The notes under the pieces: generated by a model | Told to the model about the DNA's origin: nothing | The model's input: the letters and a program-made list of their open reading frames with translations, nothing else | The model's database searches: none | Translations under genes and position numbers: made by a program | NCBI GenBank assembly: GCA_964483025.1 | Contig: CAYZZT010000002.1 | Coordinates: 1-39,659 of the forward strand | DNA from: an uncultured Candidatus Saccharibacteria bacterium | GTDB taxonomy: Bacteria > Patescibacteriota > Minisyncoccia > Phycocordibacterales > CAIZIN01 | Length of the DNA: 39,659 nucleotides | Direction of reading: 5' to 3' | Shown: positions 35,184 to 37,490 of the stretch, piece by piece | Layout of the letters: every line of letters begins with the position of its first letter | How positions within the stretch are numbered: the stretch's first letter is position 1

Positions 35184-37490
35184 TTACAAGATCTTCAGGA
35201 ATTCGTCCTCTGTCAATACCTGAATTCCGATCTCCTTTGCTTTACTGAGCTTCGACCCCGCATTCTCCCCCACCACCACATATGTAGTTTTTTTAGAAAC
35301 CGAGCTTGATACATCCCCACCGAGAGAACGAATTTTTTCTTCTGCCTCTATGCGAGAAAGTTTATCCATTGTTCCCGTGAGCACAAAAGTCATGCTTGCA
35401 AATTTTTTCACACCACTTTCTTGTTTTGGATTTTCTACCTCAATCTGTTTTAGCAAATCTTTTAGTAAATTTTTATTTGAAGAATTTTCAAACCATTCCA
35501 CCAAAGACTTTGCCACAATATCCCCCACACCAAAAACTTTCATAAAATCTTCTTCCGTTGCTTTTGCAATCTTTTCAATACTTCCAAAATTATTCGCAAT
35601 ATCATAGGCAGTCTCTTCACCAACCTGCGGGATAGAAAGTGAAATTATCAATCTTGGGAGTGTAACTTTTTCTGCTTTAGCAATTGCTTCAATCAAATTA
35701 TTTGTCGATTTTTCTTTAAACCCTTCTAGCCCCAAAATATCTCCAGCTTTTAATGTGAACAAATCGGCATATGTAGACATAAGCCCAGCATCAAGCAAAG
35801 CATCAACAATTCTTGGGCCTAAGCCATCAATATCAAATGCTCCCTTACCTACAAAATGATACCATTTTCTTTTTTCTTGTTCGTATGAATTATGCACACA
35901 TTTCCATGCAACTTGCCCCGGTTCCCTTTCTATAGATCCGTCACCGCCACAAACAGAAACTTTTTTAGGGAAATGATATTCTTTTTCATTACCCTTTCGT
36001 AATTCTTTCAAGACTTTTACAATTTTCGGGATTACATCTCCAGCTTTTTCCAAAATCACAGTATCACCTATTCGCACATCAAGTCTTCTTATTTCATCTT
36101 CATTATGAAGTGTCGCTCTAGAAACTGTCGAGCCAGCTACCAGAGTCGGCTTTAAATGAGCCACAGGTGTCACTACGCCTGTGCGCCCAACTTGAAGGAC
36201 AATATCTTCTACAATAGTTGTTACCTGCTCGGCTTTAAATTTATAAGCGACACCAAAGCGTGGAGACTTTCCTGTATAGCCAAGCGCTTCTTGAATTTTT
36301 ATTGAATTTACTTTTATCACTATTCCGTCTAAACCATAATCGAGCTTATCTTTTTCTTTTTCCCAATGTTTATAGAAATCTTCTATTTCTTTTATATTTT
36401 TACAAACTTTATGATGTGGATTTGTTTTAAATCCAAGTTTTGAAAGGAATTTTATTTCTGCATCTTGACTTTCAATATAATCATCTCGCTCCAGTTTGTC
36501 ATCCTCCTCTCGTTTGTCACCCTCTCGTGTATTGTCATTCCCGCCCCCGTATTCACGAGGATAAACTCCTGCAGAATCCATGATAATCTGTTTAGAATTT
36601 TGAATTTTGAATTTTGAATTTGTTTCGAATTTCGGATTTCGGATTTCGGATTTTACCGACTGTGAGCTCGGGATGGGCCCCGAGCGCAAGGACGGAAGCT
36701 GACGAGCTGAGTCGTGGCCAGAAGATTTTTCAGTAGAAAAATACTTGTGGATTCCGGCCTTCGCCGGAATGACAGAAGAGTAGGAGTCTATATCATATAT
36801 AAAAGAATTTAAATTCCTACTCGATGCAATTTTTGGATCAAGCTGGCGGATGGAACCGGCAGCAGCATTTCTAGTATTTGCAAAAGGTGCCTCACCTTTT
36901 TTTTCTCTTTCTTTATTTATTCTCTCTAATTCTTTTTTAGAAAGCCAACACTCACCCACAGCAACCAAATCAACTTTTTGACTAAGCAAAAGTGGAATGC
37001 TTTTAATAGTTTTAAGATTCGATGTTACATCTTCACCAATCTCTCCATCGCCCCGTGTTGCCCCTTGTACAAATTCACCATTTTTATATGTGAGAACCAT
37101 TTTAAGTCCATCAATTTTAAGCTCTACACAATATTCTAATTCCTCACTAGCAAGTGAATCATCTTTCTCTATTAATCTTTTTATTTTTTCATCCCATTTT
37201 ATAAGCTCGGCAAAGTCAAAAACATCATCATATGACCATTGCTTTACTTGATGCTTTACTTTTTTAAATTCTTTCAAAGGAATGCTTCCCACCCTTTGTG
37301 TTGGGCTTGTATCATTTTTAAGCTCTGGATATGCCTCCTCAAGCGAAATAAGCTCTTTTAAAAGAGAGTCATATGCTTCGTCACTAATCTCCGGCCTATC
37401 TTCTGTGTGGTATTTATGTGAATGGAAAGAGATGAGACTTTGGAGCTTAGCGGCCCTATCCTTAATATCTTTGGGTATTTGCCTTACCAT
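35184..37490 (-). CDS. ligA: NAD-dependent DNA ligase carrying a ~98-aa repeat-derived insertion
   Basis: Adenylation motif [11 protein letters not shown] fold, HhH region, and BRCT ([24 protein letters not shown]). 768 aa versus about 670 for typical LigA. The start overlaps the upstream pilin stop (TAATG). Confidence 0.92.
36480..36776 (-). repeat. composite repeat insertion inside ligA, in frame
   Basis: Contains a ~113-nt element about 90% identical (by eye) to 38821-38933, palindromic units at 36749-73 and 36534-63, and 7-mer tandems GAATTTT x~4 (36595-36621) and ATTTCGG x3 (36629-36649). Confidence 0.85.

Follow-up and report, generated by a model that had tools for sequence, protein, structure and literature searches.

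How an essential DNA ligase comes to encode close to one hundred additional residues within its adenylation domain, and why the DNA that specifies them stays open in the ligase frame, are the questions raised by the ligA gene of an uncultured Candidatus Saccharibacteria bacterium (contig CAYZZT010000002.1). We analyzed a stretch of 39,659 nucleotides carrying this gene (hereafter, the window) together with related loci. A first-pass annotation, made from the letters of the window, had described an in-frame insertion of ~98 residues in the 768-aa LigA, built of repeat elements. The reading we favor, with a probability of about 0.8, is that the insert is a selfish or neutral mosaic of small hairpin repeats occupying codons of a variable surface loop in the LigA adenylation domain, where it would be translated as a disordered, hydrophilic peptide of ~97 residues and tolerated. 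Its translation we infer from the sequence.

The LigA insert and its filled and empty sites

The gene and its extra segment are located in the window as follows.
35184..37490, minus strand: ligA, NAD-dependent DNA ligase, an intact ORF of 768 aa with motif I KIDG at K125
36469..36786, minus strand: the insert, replacing the native 27-nt loop (LYHNGEIQD), as read against the empty-site orthologs L001-L004

All Pfam domains of LigA score strongly and the catalytic KxDG is there, with the adenylation domain divided by Pfam into two stretches. A phmmer comparison with E. coli LigA (2owo) was likewise split into two blocks, pairing residues 9-234 of the window LigA with 4-227 of the E. coli protein and residues 350-768 with 247-669, and the window LigA has ~96-98 surplus residues between them. 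The loop at this site is 9-10 residues long in 87 of the 120 closest homologues, bearing out the figure of about 10 residues given in the first-pass annotation for typical LigA proteins, and 106 residues long in the window LigA. At the DNA level, a segment of 318 nt stands in place of 27 nt. The net gain of 291 nt, i.e., 97 codons relative to the empty-site orthologs, confirms the in-frame insertion that had been described.

An AlphaFold model of LigA built on an 18-sequence alignment was too poor (mean pLDDT 47.8), and a 120-sequence alignment was used instead (mean pLDDT 79.7). The only segment of this model with pLDDT below 50 comprises residues 241-336, between a strand (228-239) and a helix (342-351), and the predicted adenylation domain matched solved LigA structures with a TM score of 0.93. 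The insert is hydrophilic (GRAVY -1.23), with 76% of its residues being polar, charged, Gly or Pro. The model thus predicts that the insert position is compatible with the LigA fold, forming a disordered loop in an otherwise intact adenylation domain. Ortholog alignment and structural mapping, both proposed in the first-pass annotation, have in this way yielded empty orthologs and a predicted position between strand and helix.

The LigA loop is filled in 30 of the 120 relatives, and such recurrence at one loop is striking. The site is also filled in nine close orthologs that come from independent assemblies (L005, L006, L007, L008, L051, P0005, P0009, P0010 and P0012), and the insert is kept in 9 of the 12 clade members. 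Orthologs that are 97% identical lack it, and the exact boundaries can be read from them; no target-site duplication was seen at the junctions when filled and empty sites were compared. All of the filled orthologs are in frame and stop-free, both those that were aligned (11 of 11) and those from species-representative genomes found by tblastn (4 of 4). Six inserts were aligned as DNA (the window and five orthologs). Inverted GTCAT...ATGAC hairpin units bound every one of them, and their interiors differ, being made of heptamer arrays, the 113-nt 'B' module or swapped units. The insert of L005 is ~135 nt long, with terminal inverted repeats of 25 nt that have one mismatch. More distant relatives carry ~17 short inserts in the same loop, all in a single frame and orientation (SLRAxRxNP), a pattern that is not obviously predicted by random insertion and filtering alone. 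A metagenome scan for LigA returned few close relatives.

Hairpin modules in and around ligA

Five modules were distinguished within the insert.
36747..36774, minus strand: left hairpin unit TGTCATTCCGGCGAAGGCCGGAATCCAC, read (S)VIPAKAGI; an exact match to the published SRM pattern
36662..36746, minus strand: 'B' multi-hairpin module, 31 residues, nested in the window lineage; ~91% identical to 38844-38931
36591..36653, minus strand: two tandem arrays of heptamers, which on the coding strand are (AAATCCG)n and (AAAATTC)n, 22 residues
36534..36579, plus strand: right hairpin unit, inverted, with 26 nt interrupting the loop, GTCATTCCCGC...GCAGAATCC, 16 residues; with intergenic copies in L001
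36480..36533, minus strand: degenerate half-units with a short direct repeat, GGTGACAAAC / GGATGACAAAC, 17 residues; homologous to part of the L051 insert

For each of these modules, further copies exist in the window or in sister genomes, which confirms the view of the insert as a mosaic of a repeat family. The two palindromic units and the 7-mer arrays of the first-pass annotation correspond to the left unit, the right unit and the heptamer module above. The annotation had also reported a ~113-nt element about 90% identical to 38821-38933, and positions 36668-36776 are indeed the reverse complement of 38818-38925, at 90.8% identity over 109 nt. The interrupted right unit (36532-36580) matches the L001 intergenic copies at 86-90%, the right end of the L051 insert is homologous to 36480-36533 of the window over ~50 nt, and 6 orthologs conserve the length of the heptamer arrays. 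When up to 3 mismatches are allowed, the window has 4 occurrences of the 25-nt palindromic unit, with 0 expected. A terminator scan of the coding strand found none inside the insert, and promoter-like matches showed no significant enrichment (19, versus an expected 13 ± 3.7).

The basic unit, ~28 nt long, combines a TGTC tag and a CCA tail with a hairpin of 8-bp stem and 4-nt loop. Across 17 aligned units, the tag (T3 G4 T5 C6) and the stem pairs 7-26 (A-U) and 8-25 (U-A) are invariant, and the tail ATCCA is conserved. Among the same units, 97% of the stem cells are paired and compensatory changes occur in 5 of the 8 pairs; cells with double changes number 24, compared with 7.1 ± 2.1 in shuffles, as covariation. 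Published CGTC-1 REPs have a CGTC tag, a stem of 8 bp that opens with A-T then T-A, a loop of 4 nt and a CCA tail, and Rickettsia RPE-6 is classed among them (PMC3733652). We also searched with the published SRM pattern, HGTCWYN(0-2)YYVSBRHN(0-5)WNVSBRGN(0-2)RNCYNB, in which H permits T. It was matched exactly at 36747-36774 (the ligA unit) and 34442-34469, with shuffles averaging 0.03 matches; these exact matches exclude other window variants, e.g., those with a TCCTGC stem. The units belong to the CGTC-1 REP / Neisseria dRS3 / NTS / Ssn-related-motif class. A permissive Rfam scan gave only sub-threshold matches to the Francisella sRNA FtrB and no membership.

Outside the insert, the window has four further repeat blocks.
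34442..34508: two intergenic units in the gatA/gatC spacer, at 34442-34469 (plus strand, SRM match) and 34483-34507 (minus strand)
34937..35121: intergenic repeat block in the gatC/ligA spacer, containing a unit with a long loop (34939-34982) and a B-like module that includes a unit (35006-35121)
37981..38242: repeat block across the 5' end of a PilX-like gene and the spacer, with units at 37982-38006 (plus strand) and 38217-38241 (minus strand) and a B-like module at 38079-38194
38818..39133, plus strand: mosaic of a truncated unit and three B modules, in frame in a pilin-like ORF (38275..39210)

All of the window units lie at 34.4-39.2 kb, near pilus genes and ligA, with 0 in the other 34 kb, and ligA is flanked by a perfect 116-nt inverted repeat pair. 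The mosaic in the pilin-like ORF extends its leader by 87 aa relative to L001. The first-pass annotation had suggested counting genic in-frame and intergenic copies across the whole genome and related genomes; the count was done over the window and six related loci (~109 kb), which contain 43 units, and in-frame genic copies were found as well. Overall, the modules are mostly intergenic (21 of the 43 units). Modules also sit in frame in tsaD of L001, in a RecO_N protein and in pilin leaders, and gene P0124 is probably another in-frame host. Searches with the insert peptide retrieved only 2 proteins (word-indexed) and 6 proteins (exhaustive, 1.84 billion representatives), so few that the B module is lineage-restricted.

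Coding constraint and competing explanations

The insert has 0 stops in the ligA frame, and each of the other five frames has 1-7. The first-pass annotation had put the chance of such an open frame at ~1% by a rough calculation; in composition-matched shuffles the value is P = 0.0035, so the openness is indeed unlikely by chance. Differences at the three codon positions are distributed as 466:243:1553 outside the insert, whereas in the heptamer module they are 9:19:19. Synonymous and nonsynonymous differences number 1296 and 543 outside the insert, versus 8 and 27 inside. The dominance of third-position and synonymous differences outside the insert indicates strong purifying selection on ligA there, and the codon-position patterns indicate that the insert is without amino-acid constraint. 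It is tolerated, not selected as protein. The insert DNA diverges at 0.11 per site, compared with 0.39 at flanking third codon positions, and to account for this slower divergence one must further assume either constraint at the DNA level or concerted evolution with copies elsewhere.

Under the favored reading, a unit doublet would have entered the LigA loop in the ancestor of the clade and would later have been remodelled, both through nested insertion of the B module (in the window lineage) and through recombination with copies elsewhere, and some lineages may have deleted it. Given that ligA is essential, the only variants to persist would be those that are stop-free and add a multiple of three nucleotides, which would explain the open frame. 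By analogy, candidate movers acting on the single-stranded hairpins include a Y1 (RAYT-like) transposase and a single-strand nuclease of the Ssn (GIY-YIG) type; recombination between copies is a simpler candidate. The window encodes no mobilising enzyme, with no Y1 transposase among its scanned ORFs, and the sole hint of one is a faint Pfam Y1_Tnp match on a relative's contig (P0006).

An alternative that we consider unlikely is that the insert has been co-opted, either as an NTS-like DNA site, at which an Ssn-type nuclease would cut incoming or replicating DNA and so modulate recombination over the type IV pilus-ligA locus, or through a gained protein function. Ssn nucleases cut the motif in Neisseria and Wolbachia, and the motif clusters near particular genes and modulates transformation (PMC11893778). 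The units described here match that motif, and those of the window are confined to 5 kb near pilus genes and ligA, although this clustering may simply follow the available intergenic space. The insert DNA is also more conserved than the flanking synonymous sites and has been kept in most of the clade (the 9 of 12 members above), yet near-identical strains are without it, and its amino-acid sequence is unconstrained. Small GIY-YIG genes (ORFs of 85-130 aa) are present in related loci, but only in the more distant L052 and L027 and without flanking SRM matches; a motif search for small GIY-YIG genes found no Ssn gene (cd10448) either in the window or in its closest sister loci. A wider form of the idea, which we regard as doubtful to the same degree, would make the LigA loop a specific site at which, across Paceibacteria, Ssn-related hairpins repeatedly land or are retained; together with an Ssn-type nuclease, these hairpins would control the recombination of imported DNA at the pilus/competence-ligA locus. 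If this were true, the insert would be a functional genome-dynamics signal in an essential gene, not junk.

Intron, intein, assembly chimera and pseudogene were rejected, given the open frames, the missing signatures, the independent assemblies and the purifying selection. Removal at the RNA or protein level had been offered as an option in the first-pass annotation and is not supported; we find it highly improbable that the insert is lost before the protein works, whether as an intron or intein or by translational bypass. The folding of the insert RNA is somewhat more stable than that of shuffled sequences (z = -2.5), and the lineage does have a group I intron in another part of the window. 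However, ligA has no Rfam intron match at the gathering or a permissive threshold, a Pfam scan of the insert found no Hint, intein or other domain of any family, and the insert is put together from short repeats that are unrelated to each other, unlike a single conserved ribozyme. Moreover, excision would not need the filled orthologs to be stop-free and in frame, as all of them are.

There is likewise very little chance that the insert is an assembly artefact, i.e., a chimeric join through repeats. The 768-aa allele itself comes from one contig, the region is rich in repeats, including the perfect 116-nt inverted pair around ligA, and the sister contigs L001 and L002 diverge within the repeat block. 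Nevertheless, homologous inserts at the same codon and with the same boundaries occur in independent assemblies of other samples and studies, and the junction codons (SYSS-VIPA...) agree with the filled orthologs, not with the empty allele. The B module differs by 9% from the copy nearest to it and thus is not a collapsed duplicate, and an in-frame return to ligA would be unexpected from a chimera. That ligA is a decaying pseudogene, with another ligase active, is extremely unlikely given its intact 768-codon ORF, strong domain scores, KxDG motif and the strong purifying selection outside the insert (1296 synonymous versus 543 nonsynonymous differences).

Relation to known repeat families

The selfish or neutral hairpin mosaic that we favor is of a kind already known from Rickettsia and other bacteria, found here in Patescibacteria; our literature search returned nothing relevant on palindromic elements or MITEs in the candidate phyla radiation or Patescibacteria. 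Rickettsia palindromic elements, RPE-6 and RPE-4 among them, were described by Ogata et al. 2000 and are reviewed in PMC10969869 and PMC3733652. Like these, the palindromes here occur in intergenic DNA as well as in frame within genes that are conserved and often essential, with insert-free orthologs, and they add an extra peptide (here a predicted translation) at a fold-compatible position. RPE-6 in particular shares its hairpin type with our units (CGTC-1 REP; PMC3733652). Unlike the RPEs, the host is a member of the Patescibacteria (Paceibacteria-like), and the insert is a composite of several modules, not one RPE. The proposal in the first-pass annotation of an RPE-like, coding-compatible family in a surface loop is therefore supported, by the RPE-6 hairpin class, the intergenic and in-frame copies and the low-confidence loop.

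The stem, loop and CCA tail are shared with the CGTC REPs, NTS and SRM (Di Nocera 2013, PMC3733652; Chenal 2025, PMC11893778), and a by-eye comparison of the unit at 34442 with the Neisseria NTS consensus showed 2 differences over 28 positions. REPs that lie in frame within genes, many of which serve replication or repair, have been catalogued across several phyla (PMC3733652). As with the CGTC REPs and NTS, our units are often paired in inverted orientation, and there are in-frame intragenic copies. The candidate phyla radiation is absent from the phyla listed in 2013 for CGTC REPs (PMC3733652). Unlike the CGTC REPs, the tag here is TGTC, and the insert adds 97 residues compared with the 43-82 reported for REP clusters.

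As in the NIMEs of Neisseria and the BIMEs of E. coli, alternating hairpin units are interleaved with short modules, here the B module and the heptamer arrays. NIMEs and BIMEs are intergenic by definition, whereas the ligA mosaic sits in coding sequence and is read through; the other window copies are intergenic. The inverted hairpin doublet as the evolving unit and the lack of a target-site duplication are features of REPINs, which RAYT transposases mobilise (PMC3116915) and which, in contrast to our units, carry a GTAG tag (TGTC here) and are essentially extragenic. In-frame fusions are also made by MITEs, including ERIC, BOX, Coxiella QMITE1 and the Anabaena MITEs (PMC10969869). With these, the insert shares its short, non-autonomous nature, its terminal inverted repeats and the capacity to be read through in a host ORF, but it has no visible target-site duplication and no known parent insertion sequence, and its termini are autonomous hairpin repeats.

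Tolerance of such an insert is less expected in the tiny, densely packed genomes of this lineage. The locus links three literatures that name the same hairpin differently, i.e., Rickettsia RPE-6, Neisseria dRS3/NTS and the Ssn-related motif. Alleles of this one essential enzyme that are empty, filled or filled differently form a natural series, which could show how repeats enter, are remodelled and exit, and how large a disordered insert can be tolerated by a DNA ligase. For annotators, repeat-encoded peptides such as SLRAERGNPE flag DNA of this kind in predicted proteins and in inflated N-termini.

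Composition and class of the LigA insert

The insert and the gene that carries it have the following positions.

35184..37490, minus strand: ORF of ligA, NAD-dependent DNA ligase, 768 aa
36469-36786: in-frame repeat segment inside ligA (hereafter, insert)
36591-36653: heptamer array (7-nt tandem repeat) of the insert

Two blocks of LigA could be aligned to the E. coli protein (2owo; 9-234 to 4-227 and 350-768 to 247-669), leaving ~97 residues between them without an E. coli counterpart. The corresponding loop has 9-10 residues in 87 of the 120 closest homologues and 106 in the window LigA, so the ~98-aa in-frame insertion claimed by the first-pass annotation is real. 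The full set of LigA domains was detected by Pfam, with the adenylation domain split in two, and the Pfam scan of LigA assigned no domain to the insert. In the AlphaFold model (120-sequence alignment; mean pLDDT 79.7; TM 0.93 to solved LigA adenylation domains), residues 241-336, placed between strand 228-239 and helix 342-351, are the sole segment with pLDDT <50 and are without secondary structure. The insert is also hydrophilic (GRAVY -1.23 vs -0.40 for the rest of LigA).

Inspection of the DNA bore out the earlier claim of a repeat mosaic. Positions 36668-36776 are the reverse complement of 38818-38925 (90.8% identity over 109 nt), a palindromic 25-nt unit occurs four times in the window where no copy is expected, and a second, interrupted unit has 86-90% matches in sister-genome intergenic DNA; the heptamer array is also part of the mosaic. 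The open frame noted earlier also holds, as the ligA frame alone is free of stop codons (1-7 in each of the five other frames) and composition-matched shuffles were open in 0.35% of cases.

A gap-free alignment could be made of seventeen distinct units, taken from the window and from related loci. All have 5' TGTCAT and 3' ATCCA, and in their 8-bp stem 97% of cells are paired, with compensatory double changes in five of the eight pairs. There were 24 double-change cells, compared with 7.1 +/- 2.1 in shuffles, and the pairing was lost when the partner was slid. A weak Rfam match to the Francisella sRNA FtrB, whose consensus includes GuCauuCcCGCGuAGGCGgGaauC, led via a full-text sequence search to Chenal et al. 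2025 (PMC11893778). There, the Neisseria Transformation Sequence (NTS), CGTCATTCCCGCGMAVGCGGGAATCYRG, is an extended dRS3 repeat, and its generalised form, the Ssn-related motif (SRM), is cut as single-stranded DNA by small GIY-YIG nucleases (Ssn, cd10448). The published SRM pattern matches the ligA unit 36747-36774 and another unit at 34442-34469 with zero mismatches. The same hairpin class was named CGTC-tagged REPs by Di Nocera et al. 2013 (PMC3733652), with 8-bp stems beginning with A-T pairs, CCA tails and, in family 1, 4-nt loops; CGTC-1 corresponds to dRS3 of Neisseria and RPE-6 of Rickettsia conorii. In-frame intragenic copies are known from several species, many in replication and repair genes, and clusters inside genes encode up to 82 residues (PMC3733652).

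We conclude that the insert is an example of CGTC-1/NTS-class palindromic repeats that code for protein. The main initial reading, of a repeat family similar to Rickettsia palindromic elements and tolerated in a surface loop, was correct, and since the units share the class to which RPE-6 belongs (PMC3733652), the comparison is more than analogy and the kind is already known. What is new here is the host lineage and the unusually long and composite insert. Alternating-orientation units interleaved with other modules are the same arrangement as in the NIME of Neisseria and the BIME of E. coli.

Filled and empty orthologs

Two LigA proteins, P0002 and P0003, share 97% identity with the window LigA outside the insert, yet lack it: in their DNA (loci L001-L004), 27 nt encoding LYHNGEIQD stand in place of window 36469-36786. 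Type IV pilus genes, ligA, gatC and gatA are syntenic among the loci. Nine other orthologs from independent assemblies (P0004-P0010, P0012 and locus L008) have inserts of 30-77 residues at the same site, and the eight proteins among them share 80-85% identity with the window LigA outside the insert. When the insert DNA of the window and five filled orthologs was aligned, all six sequences started with a unit GTCAT(T)CC...GG(A)ATCC and ended with a unit in inverted orientation, GGAT.C...GG(A)ATGAC. Between these units the sequences vary: four have heptamer arrays, one has a short spacer, and the window and L008 contain the 113-nt multi-hairpin repeat (B module). No target-site duplication was visible at the insert when filled and empty orthologs were compared. 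The neighbour-joining tree placed nine filled and three empty members in the window clade, with an empty outgroup, for which a single gain followed by remodelling and loss would be the simplest history. Identity to L001 is 90% for the 5' third of ligA (37969-36787) and 96% for the part 3' of the insert (36468-34994), a hint that ligA may be mosaic through recombination, with its breakpoint close to the insert.

Removal of the insert as an intron or intein, the alternative raised in the first-pass annotation, is disfavoured, as no signature of either was found in Rfam or Pfam and the frame is conserved in every filled ortholog, including four species-representative genomes identified by tblastn rather than ORF calling. 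An assembly artefact is unlikely because the site and junction codons are common to independent assemblies and the nested B module differs by 9% from the copy most similar to it. A pseudogene is excluded by the intact ORF, the retained KxDG motif, and strong purifying selection outside the insert. Co-option of the insert as an NTS-like signal is an improbable further reading.

Codon-position comparison of four orthologs revealed 466:243:1553 differences at positions 1-3 outside the insert (1296 synonymous and 543 nonsynonymous codon changes). For the heptamer module that they share, the counts were 9:19:19, with synonymous changes numbering 8 and nonsynonymous ones 27. Judging from these counts, the insert peptide sequence is not under protein-level selection, and its frame is nonetheless kept open. 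Per-site divergence was 0.11 for the insert DNA vs 0.39 at flanking third positions, which may point to homogenisation with other copies or DNA-level constraint.

Repeat insertions elsewhere in LigA and in other genes

Outside the window clade, the same loop is filled in 20 of 120 homologues, and about 17 of these 20 inserts read SLRAxRxNP. In the DNA of two related loci, L052 and L053, inserts of this type are GTCATTGCGAG...GCAATCC units, whose codon phase differs from that in the window clade. The filled/empty pattern requires 23 changes (Fitch parsimony, rough tree), and it may stem from targeting or from a strict selective filter, or else from a single ancient insertion that was lost many times. 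A second adenylation-domain site, after residue ~109, has 12-22 extra residues in five homologues (P0005, P0007, P0008, P0010 and P0098), and in one case these come from a unit read as CHPREGGDPS. In the LigA of L053 (P0098), another in-frame unit, read as VIARSEATKQS, precedes the BRCT domain. LigA therefore has permissive sites beyond the main loop.

L053, 1049-1082 and 2280-2312: sites noted in the LigA gene of P0098

When the window was scanned together with six related loci, 43 units were detected, i.e., 21 intergenic, 11 at ORF 5' edges and 11 within long ORFs (8 of them in ligA). A tsaD-like gene of L001 (15220-16668, minus strand; 482 codons) contains two in-frame inserts of B module and heptamer array, and is a second essential gene decorated with repeats, in a sister genome. 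The unit and B module were also found in pilin-like proteins, in a protein of the RecO_N type and in P0124, which is a protein fragment. An exhaustive search of 1.84 billion representatives retrieved no more than six relatives of the insert peptide, therefore the B module is narrowly distributed.

The N_methyl pilin-like protein has 311 aa in the window (38275-39210, minus strand), 224 in L001 (8654-9328) and 246 in L004 (289-1029). Because of three B modules, the leader of the window ORF is 87 residues longer than that of the L001 ortholog. The length and content of this repeat-built N-terminal leader are wholly different among close strains; the repeats may be translated and then cut off by prepilin peptidase, unless translation in fact begins further downstream.

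Neighbouring repeats and other features of the window

A perfect (100%) 116-nt inverted repeat of hairpin unit and B-like module (35006-35121 and 38079-38194; 2957 nt between arms) brackets ligA and a PilX-like gene. The remaining copies of its module differ by 5-15%, and the identity of the arms points to a duplication or gene conversion of recent date, or to a segment that can invert; gene order is nonetheless unchanged vs the sister loci. L001 and L002 encode identical LigA, and their contigs part after ~12205, within a repeat block just downstream of ligA. From there L001 runs into the gene for a class I aminoacyl-tRNA synthetase, and L002 into gatC; either the repeats were the site of a true rearrangement or the assembly is chimeric.

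Unit ends ...GGAATGACA provide -35-like ATGACA hexamers, the best promoter-like matches of the region, one of them directed into the 3' two-thirds of ligA. Such matches showed no significant overall enrichment in the region. Candidate hairpin-acting enzymes include a protein of 228 aa that matches Y1 transposase faintly and is encoded between a pilin gene and the prepilin peptidase gene on the contig of P0006, and small GIY-YIG ORFs of more distant relatives.

36769-36796 (plus), 36502-36474 (minus), 38084-38055 (minus), 38237-38265 (plus): promoter-like matches at unit ends
P0006 contig, 5835-6521: faint-Y1 gene
L052, 15176-15433; L027 (related locus), 4819-5130 and 14908-15300: small GIY-YIG ORFs, UPF0213-like

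A tRNA gene at ~29925-30237 (minus strand) has its anticodon loop split by a group I intron (Rfam Intron_gpI, 29972-30292). Its 5' half is GCGGGTGTAGCTCAGCTGGTTAGAGCG... (~30237-30203) and its 3' half, with T-arm and acceptor stem, lies at ~29965-29925; ARAGORN missed the gene, and in-silico spliced versions are called as tRNA. A LAGLIDADG ORF (30228..30905) is directly upstream. The island 23362-29935, which ends beside this tRNA, is probably a mobile element that has integrated; it encodes a large serine recombinase (28277-29935) as well as a PrimPol/PriCT protein (25200-27854). Positions 2621-10807 encode the R, S and M subunits of a type I restriction-modification system; the gene of an OLD-family AAA/TOPRIM nuclease is inserted between those for R and S.
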